A stretch of 64,000 nucleotides of DNA, from NCBI GenBank assembly GCA_963666315.2, contig CAXXHG010000038.1, forward strand, positions 1-64,000. Reading direction: 5' to 3'. Position 1 is the stretch's first letter. The number at the start of each line of letters is the position of its first letter. Source of the stretch: Candidatus Binatia bacterium (GTDB lineage Bacteria > Desulfobacterota > Binatia > Bin18). The translations under genes were made by a program, and so were the position numbers. The notes beneath the pieces were generated by a model. It was given only the letters and a program-made list of their open reading frames with translations, made no database searches and was not told where the DNA came from. This document shows, in pieces, positions 22,230-59,159 of the stretch.

Positions 22230-22475
22230 TTATGAGGCCTGAAGTCCCAACAGTTCCTGGAGCTTGGCCTTATTGAAGCCAACGATGACTTCCTCGTCGA
22301 CGATAATTACCGGTAGATGCACCCGGCCTGGGAGTTGTTGGAGGCGTTCTTGGGCGGCTGTGTCTGTCGTCACATCGTAGGCTGTGAAATCGATTCCTGC
22401 CTGTGAAAGAAACTCTTTCGCCGCTTTGCACGAGCCTCAGGTCGGTGTGGAGTACACTGCGACGCGTTTGTCCAT
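22230..22475 (-). CDS. Glutaredoxin/NrdH-like protein, probable selenoprotein (UGA = Sec13)
   Basis: MDKRVAVYSTPT-U-GSCKAAKEFLSQAGIDFTAYDVT...HLPVIIVDEEVIVGFNKAKLQELL; TGA at 22437-22439 sits in the CxxC position; GAGGT RBS. Confidence 0.85.
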
Positions 22476-22611
22476 AGGTTACCTCTTGATCGTTTATCGG
22501 GTACCCACAAGAGGTACCCTACAGCTGTGTCTATTATCGTCAAGCAGCTTCTGCGGTCAAGAAGCCCGGTATCCTTGGCCTGGCAGCTCATCTTCAGTAT
22601 AATCAAAAAAT

Positions 22612-25600
22612 ATGAATCGGATCTCGGTTGTAGTACTCGGTTGCTTTGGATTGGTGTCTGTTCTCTCCTCACCGGCGTTCCCGGAGCAGTCTCCCGATAA
22701 AGAGGGATCTCTACCAGGCGCTCATACCCACGGAATTGCATCTCCGAAAACAGATGAGCCCAACGCTTGGAAAGAAGCCGAGTTGTTGACCCATATTCGC
22801 CAGGTCACGTTTGCCGGCAGGCGGGCTGGGGAGGGATATTTCAGCCCGGATGGATCTCAGCTGATCTTTCAGAGCGAGCGCGCCGGCGACAATCCTTTTT
22901 TTCAGATCTACCGTATGAACTTGCAGGACGGTGCAACCCTCAGAATCTCGCCTGGAACAGGCAAGACGACGTGTGCCTGGTTTCATCCTCTTCAAGAAAA
23001 AGTCCTCTTCGCCTCAACGCACGAAGACCCGGATGCGCACAAAAAGCAGCAAGCCGAGGTCGAACGACGTGCCTCAGGAAAGAAGCGCCGCTATGAATGG
23101 GACTTTGATGAACACTACGACCTGTTTGAAGCAGATACACACGGACACAACCTACGCAACCTAACGAACGCGAAGGGGTATGATGCTGAGGGTTCTTGGT
23201 CACCGAACGGACAGCTCATAGTCTTTACCTCAAATCGGCATACCTATGCGGAAACCCTGTCTGAGGAAGACCGGGAGCGTTTTGCCCAGGACCCATCGTC
23301 TCAGATGGATATTTATCTCATGCGGCTCATGCGGACCGACGGCTTAGGGGTACGCCGCCTGACAACGGCCCTGGGCTATGATGGCGGGCCTTTTTTCAGT
23401 CCGGATGGAAAACGCATTGTGTGGCGGCGCTTCTCACCCGATGGTGCACGGGCAGAGGTCTGGACGATGCGTATCGACGGGACGGACAAAAAACAGATCA
23501 CTCGTCTGGATGCGATGTCGTGGGCACCCTACTTTCATCCGTCCGGCGACTATCTGATCTTTACGACGAATCTGCATGGTTTTGATAATTTCGAGCTATA
23601 CATTGTGGATACATACGGCCGCGCTGATCCTGTTCGTGTCACGCATACCAAGGGCTTTGACGGACTGCCTGTGTTTGCTCCGGACGGAAATCGGCTGGCT
23701 TGGACCAGGAGCCGGACGGCGGACAAAAAAGCCCAGATTTTCTTTGCGCACTGGAACGACGCCGGCGCGCGCTGTTTGCTTGGACTTGCGCCGCAGCTGC
23801 CCTCCACCTCTGCGATTCGGACGTGTGAGTTGCGCCGGACCGTTACTGATCTAGCCTCCGAGAAAATGGCCGGCCGGTTGACGGGCACAGAAGGAGAAAG
23901 GCTCGCAACCGAGTACGTCGCCGCTATCTTGGCAAGAAGTGGCCTCGAACCAGCCGGAGATAACGACACGTTTTTTCAGTCTTTTGAGTTCACTGCGGGC
24001 GTATCCCTCGGCCCAAAGAATATCTTGGGTCGATACGTTGGTACGGAACGAGCGGACGAACGGAGGTATGTGATCAACACAGACTGGCGGCCGCTTACGT
24101 TCTCTAAGATTGGTGACTTTGATCCGGCGGCAGTGGTCTTTGCCGGCTACGGCATTGTCGCTCCGGAAACGGATGCATACGAGGAATACGATTCCTTTGT
24201 TCATCTGGATGTGGCGGATAAATGGGTGCTTGTTTTCCGCTATCTGCCTGAAGAAATAGACGCCATACACCGCCAGCATCTCAATCGCTATGCCAGCTTG
24301 CGCTATAAAGCCATGGTCGCTCGGGACCGTGGCGCGCATGGTCTCATTATTGTCAGCGGCCCGAATACCACAGTCAAAAACCAATTGGTCACACTATCAT
24401 TGGATGCGTCTCTTGCCGGGGCGAGTATAGCCGCAGTGTCCATCACGGATGTGCTTGCCGACAAGTGGCTCCGTCAGGCGGGAAAGTCGCTGAGAGATCT
24501 GCAAACTGCGCTTGATACAGGCCGGCCGATGGCCGGATTCCCCATAACAGACCTGAGGCTTGGGGCCGCTATTGATATTCGGCAAGAGAAACGAAATGGG
24601 CGGAATGTGCTCGCACGTTTGCGTGCTAGCTCGGATACACCAGCGACCGGCATGGTCGTTGTTGGTGCGCACATCGATCATCTTGGCAACGGCGTAGGAA
24701 ATGGATCGCTGGCGCGTGAGGGGGAAAAGGGTCAGATCCATTACGGTGCAGATGACAATGCGTCCGGGGTGGCCGCCGTGCTGGGGATTGCTCAATCTCT
24801 TGCTAGGCAGCAGGCGCAAGGAGAGGGTGTCCTTCAAGGGGGGAACGGACTTAAGCGAGATATCCTGTTTGCCTTCTGGTCTGGGGAAGAAATGGGTCTG
24901 CTCGGATCAAGTCATTTCACCAAGACCTTTGGCCAAACGGGAAAAGAGCCTGAGCGGCTCTCGCCTGATATTGTGGCCTATCTCAATCTGGATATGGTTG
25001 GCCGCTTTGATAAGGCCCTGGTTCTCCAAGGCGTAGGCTCAAGCTCGATTTGGCCGAGTGCCATTGAGCACCACAATGCGCCTATCGGCCTCCCGCTGAC
25101 CTTGCACAACGACAGCTATCTGCCGACTGATGCGACGGCGTTTTATCTCAAGGGTGTCCCTATTTTAAATGCGTTTACCGGTGGGCATGCGGAGTATCAC
25201 TCCCCACGCGATACGGTGGAGAAGCTCAACTACCCTGGTCTTACAAAAATCACGCAGCTGATGGCAGGGTTGACGCGATCAGTAGCAAACCGCGCAGAGG
25301 TGCCCGACTATAGAGAGATGGAAAAGCCCCACAGTCCTGCTGGCCGGGTCCGGCTGCGGGCCTACTTGGGAACGATTCCGGACTACACCCAAGGGAGTGT
25401 CACTGGGGTGCAACTCTCTGGTGTGGCAAAAGGCGGACCCGCAGATCTGGCTGGAGTCCAAGGCGGTGATATTGTTGTGACGTTGGCGGGCAAGACGGTA
25501 GAAAATATTTATGATTACACCTATGTGGTCGTTAGTTTGAAAATTGGTGAGCCGGTTGGCATTGCTGTGTTAAGAAATGGTCAGCGGGTCGAGTTGACTA

Positions 25601-50138: not shown

Positions 50139-50266
50139 GAGTTTTCTTTATTTCGGACAACGATCGGTGACACCGACTCCTCGGGGACCCGAGTCCTCGG
50201 GGCATCTGCTTGTCCATTTGGGAAGTCTATCGTATTACCCATCGGAATACTTGTGGGGAGTTGGCT

Positions 50267-51712
50267 ATGAGCATCAAGACTGTCCGTTTCGACGAGGGTC
50301 GAGATAATGGGGCTAACGCCCCATCCGCAGGAGGAGTGAGATTGCATGCCTTTGTCATTGCCGGTACACACAGCGGTGTTGGAAAAACCACTGTTACGTT
50401 GGGGCTGCTTGCCGCCTTACGCAAAAGAGGTCTCGCCGTCCAGCCGTTCAAAGTCGGGCCGAATTTTATTGACCCTGGCCATCATACCACCGTGACCGGT
50501 GTGCCCTCCAGAAATCTCGATGGCTGGATGCTGTCACAAGAATATAATCAAGACACGTTTAGACACAATATTCAGCGTCATGACGTTGGAGTTATCGAAG
50601 GGGTGATGGGCCTTTTCGATGGTTATGACGGCAAGAGCGAAGCCGGCAGTACGGCCGAAATGGCCAAATGGCTTGGCTTGCCGGTTATCCTTGTTGTGGA
50701 TGCCTCGGCCATGGCGCGGCGTACTGCCGCGTTGATCCACGGTTTTCAAAGTTTTGATCCGAACCTCAATGTTACAGGAGTAATTTTTAATCGCATTGGC
50801 GGTCCCGGTCATCTGCAATATCTTTGTGGAGCACTTGAGGGGAGGCCGGATATCGTAGTGCTGGGTGGATTATCACACACCGCAGACATCACCATCCCTG
50901 AACGACACTTAGGACTGGTGACTCCGGAAGAACATCGATTAGGCGCGGAAAATATTGGGCGTCTGGCGACTTTCATTGAAGACAAAGTCGACCTTGATCG
51001 CCTGCTTCGGACTACGCAGTTTACCCAACCCCCAACTCCTGTTTCGCCATCCTCTACGGCGAACAGGGAGAGGCGGCGAGACAAGCGTGTCCGTTTCGGC
51101 ATCGCCCGCGATGAGGTCTTCTGTTTTTATTATCCGGAGAATCTGGAACTCTTAGAACGAGCGGGTGCTGCGCTCGTTTTCTTCAGCCCGCTGCATGACG
51201 TGCACCTACCACCGGACCTGCAGGGCATCCACCTGGGCGGTGGCTACCCGGCGGTGCATGCCGCTCAACTCTCATCAAATGTAACCATGCGCCAAGAAAT
51301 AAAAGCATTCATTGAAGACGGCAAGACCGTGTGTGCGGAGTGCGGTGGGTTTATGTATCTGACCCGGGGGACACGGACTACGCAGGGAAAATACTTTCCC
51401 ATGGTGGACATTTATCCAACGGTGGTCCGCATGTTGTCGCGCCGCAGCGCGCTGGGATATACCGAGGTTGAGATAGCCGCCACAGAAATGGATTTTCCTC
51501 CGCTACGGCTGCGCGGGCACGAATTTCACTACTCCGAATCAGAGCAGGACATAGCGCGTGACACGATCAAGACGATCTACCAAGTTCGTCAGCGCCCGAC
51601 GGACCCGCCTCGGTCTGAAGGCTATGTCTACAAACGCTGCCTCGCGAGTTATGCGCATCTACATTTTGGGAGTAATCCGGAATTTGTGGAGCGTTTGGTT
51701 TCGGGAACATAG
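50267..51712 (+). CDS. cobB: Cobyrinate a,c-diamide synthase
   Basis: SGVGKTT, FKVGPNFIDP, IEGVMGLFDG, ERHLGL, FYY.EN, AECGG, GHEFHYS; start uncertain (50267/50336). Confidence 0.92.
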   Translation: MSIKTVRFDEGRDNGANAPSAGGVRLHAFVIAGTHSGVGKTTVTLGLLAALRKRGLAVQPFKVGPNFIDPGHHTTVTGVPSRNLDGWMLSQEYNQDTFRHNIQRHDVGVIEGVMGLFDGYDGKSEAGSTAEMAKWLGLPVILVVDASAMARRTAALIHGFQSFDPNLNVTGVIFNRIGGPGHLQYLCGALEGRPDIVVLGGLSHTADITIPERHLGLVTPEEHRLGAENIGRLATFIEDKVDLDRLLRTTQFTQPPTPVSPSSTANRERRRDKRVRFGIARDEVFCFYYPENLELLERAGAALVFFSPLHDVHLPPDLQGIHLGGGYPAVHAAQLSSNVTMRQEIKAFIEDGKTVCAECGGFMYLTRGTRTTQGKYFPMVDIYPTVVRMLSRRSALGYTEVEIAATEMDFPPLRLRGHEFHYSESEQDIARDTIKTIYQVRQRPTDPPRSEGYVYKRCLASYAHLHFGSNPEFVERLVSGT

Positions 51713-51809
51713 TTTTCTTGTCTGATAATTCCGCTGAATCTCTGTTTGCTCCGCTTGCACTGTTTGCAACGCTTGACACTTACGCAACCCTCCGATACCA
51801 ACGGTCCTG

Positions 51810-51998
51810 AATCTCGCTTGAGGTGCCCATACGGGGTGAAAAGGGAAGTCGGTGCGAAGCCGACGCGGTCCCGCCACTGTGATGGGGGAGCCTGTCTCTA
51901 TTACGCCACTGCCTGCCAAAGCAGGTGGGAAGGCTGAAGACGGGTGCTGAGGTTTGAGCCTCTAACCCCCTAAGCCAGGAAACCTGCCTGAAGCCATG
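51810..51998 (+). promoter_or_regulatory. Cobalamin riboswitch
   Basis: GGTGC..AAAAGGGAAGTCGGTGCGAAGCCGACGCGGTCCCGCCACTGT..GCCACTG..GGGAAGG..AGCCAGGAAACCTGCC (B12 box), upstream of a TonB receptor. Confidence 0.95.
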
Positions 51999-52162
51999 AA
52001 CCGGCCTCTCCGCGGAGAGAGAAAGGGTTCAGCGTGTTATTTCATCGAGTCGTGTCCCACCGCCTGTTCCATATAGGCAGGCCTGCGGCACGATCTTCTC
52101 AAGTTTTTCAACACGACTGTTCCTGTTTCTCTCCTGGCGGAAGGCTTCCACGAGGAGGGAAG

Positions 52163-54235
52163 ATGGAAAAGATGAGAGATCGGGTGTGTGTATTCTTTTT
52201 GGCCTTCTTTTTATATGGACTGCATGGCGCGCCTGTCCTTGGACAGACACCGCCCGAGCAGGCAGAGGCGCAACCCGAAGAGTCAAGCGGACAACACGCC
52301 CCGCAGACCCCGCAGTCTCAAATGGAAACGCTGCAGACAGCGCCGCTGTCCGCCAAATTGAACGAAGTGATAGTCACAGCAACCAAACTTGAAGAGCCGG
52401 TCGCACACACGACACACGCAGTGTCGGTTATCACTCAAGAAGAAATCGAGCAGCGGCAAACAACCGACGTCTTCGAGCAGCTTCGTGGTGTGCCCGGTTT
52501 CAATATTATCCAAACGGGCAGTCGCGGGGGGACGACGACGTTACAGTCGCGCGGGGGGGAGTCTGACTATAACTTAGTTTTGATCGACGGAGTGAAAGCC
52601 AACCTCGCGGGTGGGGCATTCAATTTCTCTAATCTGACAACGCTGGGTGTGAATCGGATTGAAATCGTACGTGGCTCGCAAAGCGCGCTGTATGGGTCGG
52701 ATGCTATGAGTTCCGTCATTCAGCTTTTTATACCGCGAGGGCAGGCCGCACCGCACGCCTATCTCCGTTTTCGTGGCGGCAACCATGGGACCCTTGAAGA
52801 GCAGGCCGGCGTGTCGGGCGGGACGAATGTCTACGGCTATAATCTCGCTGTAGAGCGCGTTGATAGTGAAGGCATACTGTCAAAAAACAGCGACTACAGT
52901 AATACGACCATTGCGTCGCGTTTTGATCTTGATCCGAGCGATACGCTGCAGCTCACCTCAACCTTGCGTTACAACGATAGCCGCTTTCACTTTCCGACCG
53001 GTGGAGCCGGCGACCGCTTTGATCCTCTTGATCCAGGCCAGTACCAAGATAGCCGCCGCCTGATCCTGGGCCCCAGAGCGGTCTATCAACCGACTTCGTG
53101 GTGGCGCCACAAGCTCCAGCTTGGAATATTGTATGAATGGCGTACGTTTCGTGATGCTTTTGATGGAGATGCCTTTGATCCTTTCGGTTCCTTTGTGAGC
53201 AACACGAGGGAGCGGCGCCTGTCGGCGGATTACTCATCTGATTTTTTTCTGCCTCCAGTTTGGGAGGTGCTGCCCACCTTTACGCTTGGCGGCTATATTG
53301 AGGACGAACATCTGAACCAAAAATCAAACGCAGCTGGATTTATTGACCGGGTTAGCCCGAGCAGGAATGCGCAGTCGTTCTATTCTCAATTGCTGTTGGA
53401 ATGGCGTGACATGCTCTTTATTACGTCTGGGTTTCGATTAGACGACGGGTCTACGTACGGCACGCATGTCAATCCGCGTGTCTCGGCTGCCTTTATTATT
53501 CCCGGACTCCGTACCAAGTTGCGCGCTGGATATAGCACGGGCCTGAAGGCTCCGACCTTTGTTGAGAACTTTGGAACCGGCAGCTCGTTCTTTCAGGGCG
53601 ACCCGAATCTTGACCCAGAAGAATCCAAAAGTTGGGAAATCGGAGCGGAGCAGCCGCTTGAGTTCGCCAATCTCGCCGCCGAGTTGAGCCTGACCTACTT
53701 CTCTACTGAATACAAAAATATGATCGCCTTTGTCTTTCAGGGCGGACCGGATTTCTTGAATATTCAGCGCGCCCGCAGCCGAGGCCTGGAAGTGGGCGTA
53801 CGCGCTTTTTTGAGTCACGGCTTTTCGGTGCGTGGCTCGTATACCTATTTAGAGACCAAGGTGCTTGATGCCGGAATGGCAGGCGGGCCAGCCTTTGTGA
53901 ACGGCGAATCCTTGGTGCGGCGGCCCGAACATGTGGGCTCGTTTACGCTGAACTATAGTCGCGACCGCTTGAATGCCAATTTCCATCTCTTTTTAAAAGG
54001 CCACGTGACTGATCTGGACTTTAGCCAAGACTTCTCTTCCCGTCGTATTCGACTAGGCGGTTATACGCGCGCAGACCTCGCGGTTGCCTATCGCCTGTTT
54101 GAGAATCGCTGGGGCATTCGGGCCTTGGTGTTGGAGGGCCAAGCCAAAAATCTGTTTGACGAAGACTATGAGGAAGTCTTTGGCTTTTCGTCAGCAGGTG
54201 CTACGTTCCTGGTTGGATTTCGGGCCGAATTCTAA
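52163..54235 (+). CDS. TonB-dependent receptor, BtuB-like
   Basis: Signal peptide, TonB box EVIVTATK, plug LVLIDG..RIEIVRG.QSALYGSDA, NL.PEES, NLFD..Y, terminal F; under a B12 riboswitch. Confidence 0.9.
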   Translation: MEKMRDRVCVFFLAFFLYGLHGAPVLGQTPPEQAEAQPEESSGQHAPQTPQSQMETLQTAPLSAKLNEVIVTATKLEEPVAHTTHAVSVITQEEIEQRQTTDVFEQLRGVPGFNIIQTGSRGGTTTLQSRGGESDYNLVLIDGVKANLAGGAFNFSNLTTLGVNRIEIVRGSQSALYGSDAMSSVIQLFIPRGQAAPHAYLRFRGGNHGTLEEQAGVSGGTNVYGYNLAVERVDSEGILSKNSDYSNTTIASRFDLDPSDTLQLTSTLRYNDSRFHFPTGGAGDRFDPLDPGQYQDSRRLILGPRAVYQPTSWWRHKLQLGILYEWRTFRDAFDGDAFDPFGSFVSNTRERRLSADYSSDFFLPPVWEVLPTFTLGGYIEDEHLNQKSNAAGFIDRVSPSRNAQSFYSQLLLEWRDMLFITSGFRLDDGSTYGTHVNPRVSAAFIIPGLRTKLRAGYSTGLKAPTFVENFGTGSSFFQGDPNLDPEESKSWEIGAEQPLEFANLAAELSLTYFSTEYKNMIAFVFQGGPDFLNIQRARSRGLEVGVRAFLSHGFSVRGSYTYLETKVLDAGMAGGPAFVNGESLVRRPEHVGSFTLNYSRDRLNANFHLFLKGHVTDLDFSQDFSSRRIRLGGYTRADLAVAYRLFENRWGIRALVLEGQAKNLFDEDYEEVFGFSSAGATFLVGFRAEF

Positions 54236-54253
54236 GGACAGGTGTAGGAGCGC

Positions 54254-55351
54254 ATGGCTGTCATGGGCCGCGTGAGTTCATCATCCGAGTCCCTTTTGCT
54301 GTCGCATGAATCAGCCGCTGTCTGGAAAAAGAGCTGGCTGATTCCTCTGTTCGGCGTACTGCTGGTGGTTTCCATCGCCGTTGCTACGGCATTAGGCGCT
54401 GTGACCATTCCGCTACTCACAACAACGCGCTTGCTGACGTACGGGTTGTTGCAGCTGCCGATTGACGGGGATGAGCGGACTCTGGCAACGATTGTGTATT
54501 TGATTCGACTCCCGCGTGTTCTTGCTGCGGCTTTGGTGGGGGCCAGCCTTGCGCTGGCCGGGACCATGATGCAAGGGCTGTTTCGCAACCCGCTGGCTGA
54601 CGCTGGTCTCATCGGCGTGTCCAGCGGCGGCGCGCTGGGCGGGGCACTGGCGATTAGTTCAGGTTTTGCTATGGGGTCATCCTTCCTGCTCCCCTGCGCA
54701 ACATTCGCCGGCGCGCTTATCTCTGCCTTTGGCGTCTACCTTTTTGCCGCTCGCCAAGGCGAGACCTCGCTCACCAACCTCCTGCTGGTCGGGATCGCCC
54801 TGAACGCCATTTGGGGCTCGCTGACCACCTTGGTTCTAAGTTTCGCTCAGGACTATGAAATCTCCAGGCAGATTTTTTTCTGGCTGATGGGCGGCCTCGA
54901 CGGGCGCGGCTGGTCACATGTCCAGATGGTTTTCCCGTTTGTGGTGATCGGCTTTGTCCCAGCCTTTTTTTTGAGTCGTGACCTGAATGTTCTGCTGCTA
55001 GGCGAAGAAACGGCAATGAGCCTAGGGATCAATGTCGAGTATGCCAAACGACTCTTGCTCGTGTTCGCTTCCCTCCTCGCCGGGGCGGCTGTCGCCATCG
55101 CCGGGACCATAAGCTTTGTCGGCTTGGTGATTCCACATATAATGCGCCTTATCCTCGGTCCGAATCATCGTCTCCTTTTGCCTGGCGCAACGCTAGGCGG
55201 TGCCATATTCCTTGTCTGGTGCGATCTGTTTGCACGGATGGTCATTCCATCCGAGGAACTCCAGCTGGGTGTTATTACGGCCGTTGTCGGGGCGCCGCTC
55301 TTTTTACATCTCCTGCTCAGACAGGATAAAATTCAGCGTAATCCGGCATAA
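54254..55351 (+). CDS. FecCD/BtuC family ABC permease
   Basis: RLPRV, QGLFRNPLAD, LGEETA.SLG, GTISFVGL. Confidence 0.92.
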   Translation: MAVMGRVSSSSESLLLSHESAAVWKKSWLIPLFGVLLVVSIAVATALGAVTIPLLTTTRLLTYGLLQLPIDGDERTLATIVYLIRLPRVLAAALVGASLALAGTMMQGLFRNPLADAGLIGVSSGGALGGALAISSGFAMGSSFLLPCATFAGALISAFGVYLFAARQGETSLTNLLLVGIALNAIWGSLTTLVLSFAQDYEISRQIFFWLMGGLDGRGWSHVQMVFPFVVIGFVPAFFLSRDLNVLLLGEETAMSLGINVEYAKRLLLVFASLLAGAAVAIAGTISFVGLVIPHIMRLILGPNHRLLLPGATLGGAIFLVWCDLFARMVIPSEELQLGVITAVVGAPLFLHLLLRQDKIQRNPA

Positions 55352-55356
55352 CGAAT

Positions 55357-56154
55357 ATGACCGATTTGGCCTTTTCACTCGATCAGGTGCGTTATACGCC
55401 AGATCATACGCTGATTCTGGACGATGTCAGTCTGGATGTTTCTCGCGGACACTGGGTCGGTATTCTGGGCCCGAATGGCGCAGGCAAATCGACGTTGCTG
55501 CGGATTATGGCCGGTGTGTTGCCTGCCTCGTCTGGTCTTGTTCTTTTCGAAGGTAAGGTTGTAGACCAATGGTCAACTCGTGAGCGGGCAAAGCAGCTGG
55601 CCTTACTGCCGCAGCGGACAGATCTCTCGTTTCCCTTTCGGGTGAGAGAAGTCGTTGCCATGGGCCGCACGCCGTATCTTGAGCGTTGGCAAAACGAAAG
55701 CAAGGCAGATGAACGGATAGTCGAGCAGACCATGGCGCTGACAGAAATCACTCGTCTTGCCGACCGGAATGTCATGACGCTGTCAGGCGGTGAATTTCAA
55801 CGGGTCATGCTGGCGCGGGCGCTCGCCCAGCAGCCGGCCTTTCTCTTATTGGACGAGCCGACAACAGGCCTGGACCTGCGTCACCAGTTTGAAGTAGTCG
55901 ATGTATTGACGACGCTGGTCCAGCAAGGCGTCACCATCATCACCGTGCTGCATGATCTCAACGTCGCCGCGTCTGCCTGCGTGTCGGTTGTGCTGCTCCA
56001 ATCCGGGCGGGTGTATGCGGCTGGGCCGCCGCAAGACGTCTTGACTGTTGAAGCCATTCGCGCTGTGTATGGGGTAGATGTTGTCTTAGGGGAAAACCCG
56101 GAGACCGGAGCACTACAAATTATTCCGCTGCGCGTTGCCCGGCCTACTGGCTAG
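55357..56154 (+). CDS. ABC transporter ATP-binding protein (BtuD/FepC/HmuV-like)
   Basis: GPNGAGKST, LSGGE, LLDEPT, LHDLN. Confidence 0.93.
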   Translation: MTDLAFSLDQVRYTPDHTLILDDVSLDVSRGHWVGILGPNGAGKSTLLRIMAGVLPASSGLVLFEGKVVDQWSTRERAKQLALLPQRTDLSFPFRVREVVAMGRTPYLERWQNESKADERIVEQTMALTEITRLADRNVMTLSGGEFQRVMLARALAQQPAFLLLDEPTTGLDLRHQFEVVDVLTTLVQQGVTIITVLHDLNVAASACVSVVLLQSGRVYAAGPPQDVLTVEAIRAVYGVDVVLGENPETGALQIIPLRVARPTG

Positions 56155-56162
56155 ACCTATGT

Positions 56163-56711
56163 ATGGCTCACATTTCGACCGTATCCAACCTTGACGGCAG
56201 CACAACCGAGTACACGGATATTGCCGTTGAGCCCGGCCGTTTAGAGCGGCTCTTGCGCGAACTGTTTGAAGTACATTGGCAGCAGATCGTTTTTGGACCG
56301 TGCATTCAGGGCGCGGTATTTGAAATCCGGCTTACCGCGCAACCAAAAAAAGTGGCTATGCTTGATGGCTATCTCACTGTTGATGCAGGCGCGTGGCATT
56401 TTCATCTGTGCATAGCTGAGCACAATGACGTGCCTGTGCCCGAACTTGCCCAGCAGCGGCAAGTCTCTCGGGCCGCCTTTTTCCAGGACGTTCGTGCCAC
56501 CGGCCATGTCAAAGGCAGTTGGGGCCTGCGGCTGTGGAACGGCTTAGACGAGCAGATGATTACCGTCTTTTTCCCTAATCCGTATCTGACCGAGAAACAG
56601 CAAATACGACGTACTCCCGACTGGAGCCGGCTGGAGCTATGGCAGCAACTCCGACAGAAGTATACCGGCATGGAAGCGAGGGCAGCGCATGATGGACACT
56701 CCCCCGCCTGA
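56163..56711 (+). CDS. Hypothetical protein, possible HutX/HemS-like fold
   Basis: Co-operonic; FGPCIQGAVFE, WHFHLCI, SWGLRLWNG..EQMITVF. Confidence 0.7.
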   Translation: MAHISTVSNLDGSTTEYTDIAVEPGRLERLLRELFEVHWQQIVFGPCIQGAVFEIRLTAQPKKVAMLDGYLTVDAGAWHFHLCIAEHNDVPVPELAQQRQVSRAAFFQDVRATGHVKGSWGLRLWNGLDEQMITVFFPNPYLTEKQQIRRTPDWSRLELWQQLRQKYTGMEARAAHDGHSPA

Positions 56712-57237
56712 CAAGCTCGTTCACGGCCCAAAAGAACAGGATCCGCGTTTGCAACGCCTTGGGTTTCTGATCGGCCACTTTCAGGGTGAAGGCAAGTATC
56801 TGAAAGGAAGCCGACAATTCCAAAAGGACGTCGTCGGCGCGTGGCAAGCTGGTGGACAATTTCTCTCGCTGCGCATGCGTGTCGCCTATCCGCTGAAAGA
56901 CGGGCGGGTGGACGTACATGACGCCTTTGTCGTGGTTGGGCTCAATCCAGCCAACAAACAACTAGAAGCCCGCGCATACACAGACAGTGGCGGGATGATC
57001 GACTACCAGCTTGAGGTGGTAGGACAAGAGATATTTTTTCCTGACCGTCCACCCGGACATCAATCTCAAACTAAAACCCTGCGGGCGCGCGAACAGCGGG
57101 CGCGCAAGGTGCTGTGTCCGCATGAGAACGGCTTTGAAGAGCGGCTGGAGGTGGATTTCGGGACCGGGGACTATGAACCGTATTCTCGCATCATCATGAT
57201 CAAAGAAGAGGGTTCCGTGGTGAGTCCCCAGACTTGA
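56689..57237 (+). CDS. Hypothetical beta-barrel protein (nitrobindin/DUF1579-like)
   Basis: LQRLGFLIGHFQGEG N-terminal motif, beta-strand-rich; overlaps the previous gene. Confidence 0.6.
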   Translation: MMDTPPPDKLVHGPKEQDPRLQRLGFLIGHFQGEGKYLKGSRQFQKDVVGAWQAGGQFLSLRMRVAYPLKDGRVDVHDAFVVVGLNPANKQLEARAYTDSGGMIDYQLEVVGQEIFFPDRPPGHQSQTKTLRAREQRARKVLCPHENGFEERLEVDFGTGDYEPYSRIIMIKEEGSVVSPQT

Positions 57238-57264
57238 TCGCTTGAGACCGAGTCTGGGGACTTT
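57223..57264 (+). terminator. Stem-loop closing the B12 operon
   Basis: AGTCCCCAGACTTG...CGAGTCTGGGGACT followed by TT. Confidence 0.65.
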
Positions 57265-57521
57265 GCTGTACGTGTATGCCCTCGGGCCTTTGCTTCAGCC
57301 TGGAGCGTCTCCCCAGCAAAATCCGAGAGGGTGCTTCGCAGGATTCTTTTAAAACTCTTGGCAGGGCTTTTCAGCTGAGGGGCACTTGCCCGTCTTGGCC
57401 GGACTGGTAGTTGATATGGGCAAGTCGGGCGGCCGTCTCGGTTGTCCGCTATCCAAGCTGTTATGATAGGACGCATCACGTACGGAAAAGAGTCTGGTGC
57501 ACGAGTCGGAAAGGGGAGCTG

Positions 57522-58022
57522 ATGTTACGTCAACGAACAATTTACACCTGTCTGGCCTGCCTTGGTCTGTTTATCGTGGTCGCCGGATGTAGCCCAGCAC
57601 CAGCACAGGACGCGCAATCCAAACTGGCTGCATGGAATGTAGAATATAGTCCGGAGGCATTGCGCAGCCGGGCGGCGGTGGGCGATTTGACAGCCGTGCA
57701 GCTCCTGCTAGAAATCGGCATAGATTTTGATGCTAAGGACCAGCGTGGGGGAACCGCACTCCGCTACGCGGTTACGGGTGGACATCTCGAAATCGTGAGC
57801 GCTCTGCTCGAAGCTGGTGCGGATGTCAATGTTGAAGATAATGATGGTTACACTCCGCTGCGTTATGCGGCCTATAATAATCAGCCGAAAATAGCCGCAG
57901 CGTTATTAGAAAAAGGGGCGGATGTGAACGGTGGCAGCGCAGACGGCTGGACCCCTGAGGCTGTAGCCACGGGCAAAGGTTATCTTGCCGTCGTTCGACT
58001 GCTCAAAGACGCCCAACCGTAA
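57522..58022 (+). CDS. Ankyrin-repeat lipoprotein
   Basis: Lipobox VAGC; repeats G.TALRYA..GHLEIV..LLEAGADVN, GYTPL.YAA, GWTP..VA. Confidence 0.88.
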   Translation: MLRQRTIYTCLACLGLFIVVAGCSPAPAQDAQSKLAAWNVEYSPEALRSRAAVGDLTAVQLLLEIGIDFDAKDQRGGTALRYAVTGGHLEIVSALLEAGADVNVEDNDGYTPLRYAAYNNQPKIAAALLEKGADVNGGSADGWTPEAVATGKGYLAVVRLLKDAQP

Positions 58023-58124: not shown

Positions 58125-59159
58125 ATGAATCTCGCAAAACGTGAGCAACGTATTCAGACCGTTTGCCTGCTTATTCTGAGCACTGTTGCGGTAGCGGCCG
58201 CCCTGTACTGGCTACGCCCGGTCCTCGTCCCCTTTGTCTTCGCTGTTTTTATTGCCTACGGTTTATTGCCGCTCATTGAACTGCAGGTCCGGCAACTCCA
58301 CCTGCCACGTCCTGTGGCCGTGTGCTCGACGCTCGTCCTCGGCGGAGTCGTCCTGAGTGGCCTCGGCCTGTTGGTCTCCACCTCGGTGAGCCAGTTGCAG
58401 GACAATGCCGATGCCTATCAAGGCCAAATCGAAATATTCGTTGAAAGAATTTCAGCTGTGTTACCCATCGGGAATATGTTGACTAATGGACATCTGCTCA
58501 CACAGCTGTCGATCGGAAACGTCAGCAGTATATTGCTCAACACAACCAACGCCGTTGTTGGGATTTTGTCTCAGGGGCTGCTGGTCCTGATCTTTGTCCT
58601 GTACCTGCTCTTGGGTGGCGCCAGCCGAGAAGAAACAATAAGTGCTGCGTGGACGGATATTGAATCCAAGATTCAGCACTATATTGTGACCAAGGGAATC
58701 ATTTCGCTTGCGACGGGAGGTTTGGTCGGCCTTACGCTGGCAGTCCTCGGTATTGATCTGGCTCTGGTCTTTGGTCTGTTAGCCTTTTTGCTTAATTTTA
58801 TCCCGAGTGTGGGATCAATTATTGCGACTCTACTACCGCTGCCGGTTGTCGTCGTGAGTCCCGATATTTCGGCTACTACCGCGACCCTGGCCATCGTCCT
58901 GCCCGGGCTTATTCAATTTGCCATCGGTAATGTCATTGAGCCTAAGGTCATGGGTGAGGCGCTCGACCTTCACCCAATAGTGATACTTATGGCCCTTATC
59001 GTGTGGGGCATGTTGTGGGGCATCGTCGGTATGCTGTTGGCGACCCCCATGACTGCAATCCTCAAGATCTTGTTTGAGAGGCTGGAACCCATGGCTCCGG
59101 TTGCGCAGGTGCTGGCCGGTCGGCTGGATCGGCTCAAAGCGGAGAATAGAGATGTGTGA
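58125..59159 (+). CDS. AI-2E family transporter
   Basis: Multi-TM; LNFIPSVG, GNVIEPKVMG..L.LHP, WG..GMLLA.P. Confidence 0.9.
   Translation: MNLAKREQRIQTVCLLILSTVAVAAALYWLRPVLVPFVFAVFIAYGLLPLIELQVRQLHLPRPVAVCSTLVLGGVVLSGLGLLVSTSVSQLQDNADAYQGQIEIFVERISAVLPIGNMLTNGHLLTQLSIGNVSSILLNTTNAVVGILSQGLLVLIFVLYLLLGGASREETISAAWTDIESKIQHYIVTKGIISLATGGLVGLTLAVLGIDLALVFGLLAFLLNFIPSVGSIIATLLPLPVVVVSPDISATTATLAIVLPGLIQFAIGNVIEPKVMGEALDLHPIVILMALIVWGMLWGIVGMLLATPMTAILKILFERLEPMAPVAQVLAGRLDRLKAENRDV

Follow-up and report, generated by a model that had tools for sequence, protein, structure and literature searches.

The 64,000-nucleotide (nt) stretch of DNA analyzed here, hereafter called the window, lies on contig CAXXHG010000038.1 of a Candidatus Binatia bacterium (assembly GCA_963666315.2); in our data set it is contig C38 of genome G000, a 4.99-Mb assembly with 92% completeness. 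It contains a cobalamin-riboswitch-controlled import operon, in which the genes of an outer-membrane receptor and an ATP-binding cassette (ABC) transporter are followed by two open reading frames (ORFs), ORF4 and ORF5. The proteins encoded by these two ORFs, both small and cytoplasmic, are the main subject of this analysis. The operon and its upstream neighbor comprise the following features:

50210-51712, plus strand: cobB, cobyrinic acid a,c-diamide synthase (NF002204, 494.5 bits against a cut-off of 254)
51804-52005, plus strand: cobalamin riboswitch aptamer (RF00174, 114 bits against a gathering threshold of 31.5, E 8.4e-28, model positions 1-189 of 189)
52006-52162, plus strand: leader from the aptamer to the probable receptor start, presumed expression platform, with a GAGGAGGG ribosome-binding site right before the ATG at 52163
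52163-54235, plus strand: TonB-dependent outer-membrane receptor, BtuB-like (Plug PF07715, 1.5e-23; barrel PF00593, 8.2e-45)
54254-55351, plus strand: FecCD-family ABC permease, BtuC-like (PF01032, 1.2e-89)
55357-56154, plus strand: ABC ATPase, BtuD/HmuV-like (PF00005, 4.2e-33)
56163-56711, plus strand: ORF4, cytoplasmic DUF7676 protein of 182 amino acids (aa) with a HutX/ChuX/HemS-like fold in its structural model (PF24724, 2.9e-63)
56689-57237, plus strand: ORF5, cytoplasmic protein of 182 aa from an unnamed family, with a nitrobindin-like beta-barrel in its structural model (AlphaFold2 model compared by Foldseek and VIA-align)
57222-57263, plus strand: hairpin over the ORF5 stop codon, likely terminator (-32.5 kcal/mol, z = -4.98)

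The aptamer is the sole Rfam match across the window and one of only two RF00174 matches in the whole genome, the other being located on contig C47. Intergenic gaps from the receptor through the permease and the ATPase to ORF4 are 18, 5, and 8 nt, and the last 23 nt of ORF4 lie within ORF5. None of 200 shuffled sequences was as stable as the hairpin, which is directly followed by a weak U-tract (UUUGCUGU); a consensus terminator scan did not call it because its loop exceeds the length allowed by that scan. The tightly coupled order described in the first-pass annotation, from the riboswitch through the receptor, permease, ATPase, ORF4, and ORF5 to the hairpin, is therefore borne out by the strong riboswitch match, the short gaps, and the stable hairpin, and so is the proximity to cobB, which directly precedes the riboswitch and lies outside the unit under its control. 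The order cobB, riboswitch, and receptor is repeated in the metagenome locus L093.

Among the import genes, the receptor ORF called by the program spans 52034-54235, and the ATG at 52163 is the likelier start, with the ribosome-binding site in front of it and a signal-like N-terminus after it. The best NCBIfam models for the receptor and the permease are B12 models, each scoring under its cut-off: TIGR01779 (TonB-B12) with 241.7 bits against 599.7 for the receptor, which also reached 175.8 bits against 836 with NF007926, and NF007081 (BtuC) with 299 bits against 461 for the permease. The ATPase scored 288 bits with the corrinoid ATPase model NF007082, under its cut-off of 537, and 274.5 bits with the heme ATPase model NF010068, over its cut-off of 261. 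Consequently, automatic annotation would probably label this protein as a heme transporter despite the B12 riboswitch. Based on the riboswitch and the neighboring genes, the substrate of this BtuCD system is probably a corrinoid.

No gene of the Peripla_BP_2 family is present inside the operon. Three such genes were found in G000, and the best-scoring one is located on contig C47, behind the second riboswitch of the genome:

C47:774-1964, minus strand: btuF (PF01497, 107.4 bits)
C47:2042-2243, minus strand: second cobalamin riboswitch (RF00174, 107 bits)

This btuF gene starts 78 nt downstream of the riboswitch and encodes a protein with a membrane-anchor-like N-terminus. It is followed on its 3' side by cobQ (NF001989, 384.7 bits), which extends past the contig end, so that C47:3-2243 (loci L001/L005) forms a two-gene btuF-cobQ unit under the only other cobalamin riboswitch of G000; as this unit reaches the end of C47, more cob genes may be absent from the assembly. 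The G000 BtuF is 50-52% identical to the BtuF proteins encoded within two orthologous operons. One of them, in the complete genome G110 of the same genus, contains riboswitch, receptor, BtuF, BtuC, BtuD, and an ORF5 homolog (47% identity), and the other, L013, has the order receptor, BtuF, BtuC, BtuD, and DUF7676. Because both operons keep BtuF inside, it seems that btuF was transferred to a second B12-controlled unit and not lost. The first-pass annotation had described an operon without btuF and had pointed to a search for this gene elsewhere in the genome; the absence holds for the operon and does not hold for the genome, where the operon's BtuF is encoded together with cobQ under the same type of B12 control.

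We also examined the B12 gene content of this genus. CbiC, CbiX, and CobN had no match in G000 or in G110 (100% complete), CbiK not being included in this search, and the salvage genes cobB, cobQ, cbiZ, cobT, cobS, and a PduO-type adenosyltransferase gene are present in G000. The genus thus looks like a corrinoid salvager, the cargo of the operon is probably an imported corrinoid, and the riboswitch-controlled transporter is most simply explained as a corrinoid importer. In addition, G000 encodes a nitrile hydratase, a NicO-type transporter, and a COG0523 protein. The nitrile hydratase alpha and beta genes are located on contig C40 (approximately 22464-23773, minus strand), the alpha gene encoding the motif CTLCSC, and a second alpha-like match was found on C35. 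No copy of DUF7676 or of the ORF5 family adjoins the C40 genes, since each is single-copy in G000.

ORF4 matches DUF7676 (PF24724) with 212.7 bits against a gathering threshold of 27, covering model positions 3-166 of 166. At E values up to 10, the Pfam matches listed for it were this family, a weak second match to the LFE_1968-like family (PF22684, E 0.003), and one chance match, and the HemS and ChuX models were not among them. Its AlphaFold2 model has a predicted local distance difference test score (pLDDT) of 91.9 and a predicted template modeling (TM) score of 0.87. When this model was compared with known structures by Foldseek, 3na2, HutX, ChuX, Ava_4353, ChuS, HemS, and PhuS were retrieved with a probability of 1.00 and TM scores of about 0.5. 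VIA-align, which is independent of Foldseek, gave Z scores of 10.4 for 3na2, 10.1 for 2ph0, 9.5 for HutX (5exv), 9.1 for 3fm2, and 6.5 for ChuS, the next and unrelated row reaching 5.0. The only hit of the DUF7676 profile among PDB sequences was again 3na2, with a non-significant E value of 0.78. ORF4 contains the motif W78-H79-F-H81-L-C83...H87 (HxHxCxxxH), which is part of a strictly conserved core: E54, D68, Y70, W78, H79, H81, C83, R99, W125, N126, E130, M132, and W154 are identical in all 81 family sequences compared, whatever their genomic context, and H87 is identical in 80 of them. The invariant aromatic and Arg residues would suit a large planar ligand.

ORF5 has no Pfam or NCBIfam match at E values up to 10, nitrobindin included, and a profile of its family retrieved none of the PDB sequences at the same limit. 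Its AlphaFold2 model (pLDDT 83.4) is a beta-barrel, for which VIA-align gave Z scores of 16.9 with OlmO, 15.4 with THAP4 nitrobindin, 15.3 with Rv0813, 14.7 with Arabidopsis nitrobindin, 13.7 with Rv2717c, and 13.0 with RsfG. The 10-strand barrel fold of the THAP4 and Arabidopsis nitrobindins is matched over 149-151 residues, and the Foldseek E values for nitrobindins range from 9e-7 to 2e-4. Four His residues (H12, H77, H30, and H124) are conserved in the family. M170 was considered as a stand-in for the proximal histidine of nitrobindins and was dropped, as the nitrile-hydratase-linked subgroup has Ile at this position.

These results agree in large part with the first-pass annotation, which had likened ORF4 to HutX/HemS-type heme carriers and ORF5 to a nitrobindin-like barrel on the basis of short motifs. 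The quoted motifs, AWHFHLC and WNGLDEQMITVFF in ORF4 and LGFLIGHFQGEG in ORF5, are indeed present. The resemblance of ORF4 was recovered at the level of fold by the structural model, Foldseek, and VIA-align (Z 9.1-10.4); that of ORF5 was recovered as well, yet the spirocyclase OlmO scores higher than both nitrobindins. Neither protein has a hydrophobic N-terminus, as judged by eye and not by a signal-peptide program, in line with the statement that both lack signal peptides.

The same results raise the question of whether the locus is a heme uptake or utilization operon, composed of a receptor, HmuU, HmuV, a HutX-like protein, and a nitrobindin-like protein, with both extra proteins acting as heme binders. 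Heme-binding relatives do exist for both folds, and the ATPase exceeds the heme cut-off (274.5 versus 261 bits). We consider this explanation highly improbable, since the operon is under the control of a cobalamin riboswitch (114 bits), B12 models are the best ones for the receptor and the permease, and the orthologous BtuF sits with cobQ behind the second riboswitch. Moreover, the Pfam models of HemS, ChuX, and nitrobindin match neither protein at E values up to 10, no heme-uptake or heme-oxygenase family was detected among the Pfam-scanned neighbors of DUF7676 or ORF5 relatives, and no heme-utilization family was detected among the 196 ORFs neighboring DUF7676 genes that were scanned against Pfam.

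DUF7676 is a family of at least 771 clusters at 90% identity. We collected 218 relatives, using one genome per species, kept the best 80 loci, searched their host genomes with RF00174 and PF24724, and assigned each neighborhood to a class ourselves from the output of tblastn and Pfam. Among the 80 genomes, six are marked as unpublished (G410, G412, G415, G420, and G474, which are riboswitch-positive, and G435, which is negative). A same-strand RF00174 match within 8 kb upstream of DUF7676 on the same contig was found in 34 of the 80 genomes, compared with approximately 0.17 expected by chance, and in five of these 34 the riboswitch lies 193-292 nt directly 5' of DUF7676 itself. Another 14 genomes yielded no above-threshold riboswitch in 7 kb or more of sequence upstream; of these, two contain a match below threshold where a riboswitch would be expected, and in a third a riboswitch is located 12 kb upstream. 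In the remaining 32 genomes the contig is truncated.

With regard to neighboring genes, 53 of the 80 loci (48 without the unpublished genomes) have same-strand genes for Btu/TonB transport or cobalamin synthesis, a class defined by BtuF/C/D, receptor, TonB, BtuR, PduO, CobN, ChlI/D, CbiX, CbiZ, CobD, CobQ, and CobT. Nitrile hydratase alpha and beta genes are on the same strand in seven loci; a FUR-family regulator, an ABC-3 transporter, and a small Oxidored_molyb gene accompany DUF7676 in five; an AMP-binding/MipA/Rieske cluster is present in two; and the context of 13 is uninformative, three of these having nitrile hydratase on the opposite strand. In the operon of L008-L012, the ABC-3 transporter and FUR-family regulator genes are found with DUF7676 and a gene for a 160-aa Oxidored_molyb-domain protein. 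In L017 (G411 C153, an Omnitrophota metagenome-assembled genome (MAG)), DUF7676 is located 1.2 kb downstream of a B12 riboswitch and is followed not by Btu genes but by genes for an FTR1/FtrD-like permease and an ABC system of the FtsX/MacB type. When longer, fused forms of DUF7676 were sought, three proteins were retrieved, none with an informative fusion. The family is absent from 14 control genomes, and a sample of 400 further genomes from the phylum of the window, G110 included, yielded no member either; the nearest relatives outside the clade of the window come from MAGs labeled Binatia, Methylomirabilota, and Deltaproteobacteria. This distribution suggests a lateral acquisition of DUF7676.

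The ORF5 family is rare, comprising 134 clusters at 50% identity among 1.84 billion representatives; of 401 genomes from the phylum of the window, G000 and G110 were the only ones in which a member was detected. A metagenome scan yielded 79 loci, of which 66 were scanned for riboswitches and 13 short ones were left unscanned. An upstream riboswitch was detected at 18 of the 66 scanned loci. In 16 of the 79 loci the ORF5-family gene lies directly 5' of cobN, and in each of the 14 that were scanned a riboswitch immediately precedes it. A further 31 loci have the gene downstream of a nitrile hydratase beta gene, an alpha gene, and a small beta-like gene, and 18 of these also contain a COG0523 gene; no riboswitch was found at the 30 scanned loci of this type. 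In a few loci (L090-L093, L123, and L128) the gene is part of a btu operon. Across the loci of both families, all 34 nitrile hydratase alpha genes (10 from DUF7676 loci and 24 from ORF5 loci) encode CTLCSC, which we take to mark the cobalt-type enzyme, and none encodes CSLCSC. Both families are therefore statistically tied to B12 riboswitches in other organisms (34 of 80 genomes for DUF7676 and 18 of 66 loci for the ORF5 family), the association that the first-pass annotation had proposed to look for.

About 30 of the 134 ORF5-family representatives are longer (300-350 aa), with the barrel at the C-terminus. In the 22 sequences inspected, their N-terminal domain has four conserved Cys residues in the pattern Cx4C...Cx3C. 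A weak lead for this domain is the thioredoxin-like [2Fe-2S] ferredoxin family PF01257 (E 0.006 in one of three proteins tested, below curated thresholds), and its atlas scores to thioredoxin-like [2Fe-2S] ferredoxins are 0.82-0.84. An assignment of the domain to DUF7676 was rejected, as hmmsearch gave E values of 0.5-2 on 11 residues only. Such fusions of a four-Cys ferredoxin-like domain with an ORF5-type barrel, approximately 320-370 aa in length (e.g., L098:1532-2599, L100:4021-5067, L104:2769-3836, and L149:7467-8486), are encoded either directly upstream of cobN, with a B12 riboswitch in front, or downstream of nitrile hydratase genes, and no Pfam family covers them. Besides, an FNR-like flavoprotein (FAD_binding_6 plus NAD_binding_1) fused to CbiG_C adjoins both DUF7676 and ORF5 relatives in cob clusters (L052:2884-4017 and L128:8607-9725; also L020, L021, L035, L039, L112, and L123 by tblastn). 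On the 3' side of the window operon, an ankyrin-repeat protein with a signal/anchor-like N-terminus (57411-58022) is followed by an AI-2E family transporter (58125-59159); L093 and L094 share the order ORF5, ankyrin, and AI-2E, and the ankyrin gene also follows ORF5 in L007.

These fusions and neighbors bear on the possibility that ORF4 and ORF5 play another role in a cobalt pathway, such as electron transfer, redox conditioning, or regulation. The ferredoxin-like domain with its four conserved Cys residues and the FNR-like proteins fused to CbiG_C would fit a redox role, and RsfG, a barrel of the same fold as ORF5 (Z 13.0), acts as an anti-sigma factor. However, ORF5 of the window has no ferredoxin domain, ORF4 has no redox motif besides its His and Cys residues, and the ferredoxin assignment is under every curated threshold. 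We regard a role of this kind as unlikely.

The first-pass annotation had also treated the two proteins as parts of one system, and this view was not upheld, as no fixed two-protein unit was found. Both families occur together in only three of the 80 DUF7676 loci (L007, L015, and L020) and in one of the 79 ORF5 loci, which is on the same contig as L007. Further evidence comes from L090 and L092, two metagenome contigs 87-92% identical to the window, in which btuD runs straight to ORF5. Their blastn alignment to the window extends to 56154 and resumes at 56640, which defines the following stretch:

56155-56639, plus strand: stretch deleted in L090 and L092

The last ~70 nt of ORF4 are retained as a leader of ORF5 (L090:1423-1482 and L092:545-604 versus 56640-56711 of the window), and this remnant indicates that ORF4 was deleted in these relatives. 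Given the rare co-occurrence and this deletion, the two families look like independent modules that recur in similar clusters, and not like an obligate pair; they may even be alternatives to each other.

Our tentative interpretation, to which we give a little less than an even chance, is that ORF4 and ORF5, members of two uncharacterized families unrelated to each other, both bind a cobalt centre, here that of the imported corrinoid. The operon would mediate B12-repressed corrinoid import by the BtuB-like receptor, BtuC, and BtuD, with BtuF supplied from the cobQ unit. ORF4 may contact the cobalt centre through the invariant H79, H81, C83, and H87, and ORF5 through the candidate residues H12, H77, H30, and H124. 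In this organism, in which the synthesis of the corrin ring and cobalt insertion appear to be absent, the cargo would be a corrinoid delivered by BtuCD. ORF4 and ORF5 may retain it or prepare it through a change of redox state or an exchange of ligands, and might then pass it to CobB, CobQ, CbiZ, CobT, CobS, and the PduO-type adenosyltransferase. Elsewhere, the two families may serve the cobaltochelatase CobN and cobalt-type nitrile hydratase. A corrinoid is favored as the ligand in this operon because the genus has no detectable cobalt chelatase or corrin-ring pathway, because cobB flanks the operon and BtuF is linked to cobQ, and because DUF7676 is embedded in btu operons across many phyla. 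As both families also adjoin cobalt-type nitrile hydratase, an enzyme without corrin, the shared theme seems to be cobalt and not tetrapyrroles as such.

Several observations weigh against this interpretation. Cobalt-type nitrile hydratase uses no corrin, and it adjoins DUF7676 on the same strand in seven and on the opposite strand in three of the 80 loci, and ORF5 relatives in 31 of 79, with no riboswitch at the 30 of these that were scanned. The five relatives closest to ORF4 outside the clade of the window (70-76% identity) are those from the FUR/ABC-3 loci; no riboswitch was found on their contigs, only one of which (G404) has at least 7 kb of upstream sequence. Without the six unpublished genomes, the riboswitch count of DUF7676 becomes 29 of 74. 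The two families are rarely found together, as described above, and the deletion in L090 and L092 implies that ORF4 is dispensable there. On the structural side, the fold matches share just 11-18% identity and a common fold shows no function; furthermore, the nitrobindin-like fold includes the non-heme members OlmO (Z 16.9), Rv0813 (15.3), and RsfG (13.0), an anti-sigma factor. For the nitrile hydratase and FUR/ABC-3 contexts, a free metal ion is the simpler explanation.

Such an ion is the basis of a second explanation, according to which ORF4 and ORF5 bind free Co(II) or act as chaperones for it, similar to CobW (COG0523) without the GTPase, and supply or buffer cobalt for cobaltochelatase and nitrile hydratase; many of the adjoining riboswitch-controlled "Btu-like" transporters would then be cobalt importers. 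Both families share the three contexts of B12 riboswitch, cobN, and nitrile hydratase. The alpha subunits of the latter carry CTLCSC in all 34 cases, presumably indicating the cobalt type, and COG0523 genes are present in 18 of the 31 nitrile hydratase loci of the ORF5 family. The occurrence of the closest DUF7676 relatives in FUR and ABC-3 clusters, as well as the HxHxCxxxH motif of ORF4 in a core that stays unchanged across contexts, is also consistent with ion binding. A precedent has been described: CbtJKL, initially assigned to cobalamin transport owing to the similarity of CbtJ to BtuF, is a Co(II) importer controlled by a B12 riboswitch, TonB receptors specific for cobalt have been predicted downstream of such riboswitches, and NiCoT transporters were assigned to cobalt by the same logic of B12 and nitrile hydratase neighborhoods (PMC7689651). 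On the other hand, cobalt imported under B12 repression could not serve a B12 pathway in a genus without CbiC, CbiX, and CobN. The location of cobB beside the operon and the co-transcription of BtuF with cobQ also argue for a corrinoid, and known cobalt transporters accompany DUF7676 much less frequently (NicO in one of 80 loci) than do BtuF/C/D, TonB, and receptor genes. In addition, the characterized members of the HutX/ChuX/HemS fold among the structural matches all bind heme, and none a bare ion. We consider free Co(II) binding a serious possibility, second to our main interpretation and less likely than not.

A further explanation takes up the cobalt release proposed in the first-pass annotation: ORF4, as a ChuS/HemS-like protein, would open or degrade the imported corrinoid to free cobalt, for example for the nitrile hydratase of this genome, and ORF5 would carry the product. 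ORF4 matches ChuS, which is annotated as heme-degrading, with a Z score of 6.5; a nitrile hydratase of the cobalt type is encoded on C40 of G000, a genome in which no cobalt chelatase was found; and DUF7676 adjoins nitrile hydratase in other lineages. Nevertheless, ORF4 is closer to the single-domain carriers HutX and ChuX than to the two-domain ChuS, and B12 repression would be odd for a cobalt-scavenging route. G000 also has a NicO-type transporter and a COG0523 gene, and the DUF7676 genes linked to nitrile hydratase have neither a riboswitch nor nearby Btu genes. Corrinoid breakdown therefore appears very unlikely.

Returning to the binding of a cobalt centre by both proteins, a broader proposal is conceivable, albeit speculative and in our opinion rather improbable: DUF7676 proteins and ORF5 barrels, the latter stand-alone or fused to a [2Fe-2S]-like domain, might represent two unrecognized, nucleotide-independent classes of cobalt-centre chaperones for every major bacterial cobalt route, namely corrinoid import and salvage, insertion by CobN, and nitrile hydratase maturation, and the HutX-like class might be the corrinoid/cobalt counterpart of cytoplasmic heme carriers. 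The type of operon is already known, and what is new are the accessory proteins, the three-way cobalt context, and the split-off btuF. No paper dealing with DUF7676, LFE_1968-like proteins, or HutX- or nitrobindin-like proteins in B12 regulons came up in a literature search that covered neither subscription journals nor supplements. Little is known about the reception and processing of imported corrinoids in the bacterial cytoplasm, or about how cobalt gets to CobN and nitrile hydratase where a matching CobW is lacking. Here, two protein families without an assigned function have been tied to cobalt and corrinoid routes by counts well over chance, which makes ORF4 and ORF5 testable candidates for new proteins of cobalt or corrinoid handling. 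Natural ORF4 knockouts (L090 and L092), culturable Sorangium carriers (L029, L033, L034, and L043), and precisely defined residues are offered as resources. L029, from Sorangium cellulosum So0157-2, has the order riboswitch, BtuC, BtuD, BtuF, and DUF7676. Should either protein bind corrinoids, it would represent a B12 carrier of the bacterial cytoplasm with the fold of a heme carrier; should either bind Co(II), a new type of metallochaperone would be at hand that could be useful in nitrile hydratase biocatalysis.

Compared with known systems, ORF4 has the fold of the heme carriers HutX, ChuX, and HemS-ChuS-PhuS (VIA-align Z 9.1-10.4, Foldseek probability 1.00) and, like them, is a small cytoplasmic protein encoded right after an importer of the ABC type for a metallo-tetrapyrrole. 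The WHLHC of 3na2, an unannotated structure that Pfam places in the LFE_1968-like family, aligns with WHFHLC of ORF4. Unlike the heme carriers, with which it shares 11-18% identity and no HemS or ChuX Pfam match, ORF4 is under the control of a B12 riboswitch instead of iron, and the neighbors of its family in the loci scanned are cob/btu genes or nitrile hydratase and not heme genes. ORF5 shares a beta-barrel of about 150 residues with the nitrobindins At1g79260, the C-terminal domain of THAP4, and Rv2717c (Z 13.7-15.4), but differs from them in lacking any sequence-level match, in having the non-heme OlmO as its best structural match, and in its cobalt-related contexts. COG0523 proteins have been reported (PMC7689651 and PMC2770081) near cobN behind B12 riboswitches and in nitrile hydratase and FUR-family metal-uptake clusters. 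The ORF4 and ORF5 families are found in the same trio of contexts; this is a likeness of context and not of family, as neither protein has a cobW GTPase or CobW_C Pfam match and the folds are unrelated. Finally, the window operon shares with canonical BtuB-BtuFCD systems a riboswitch-controlled TonB-dependent receptor, a FecCD permease, and an ATPase, and departs from them in that its components miss all NCBIfam B12 equivalog cut-offs, btuF is split off together with cobQ, and two extra cytoplasmic genes have been added to the unit.

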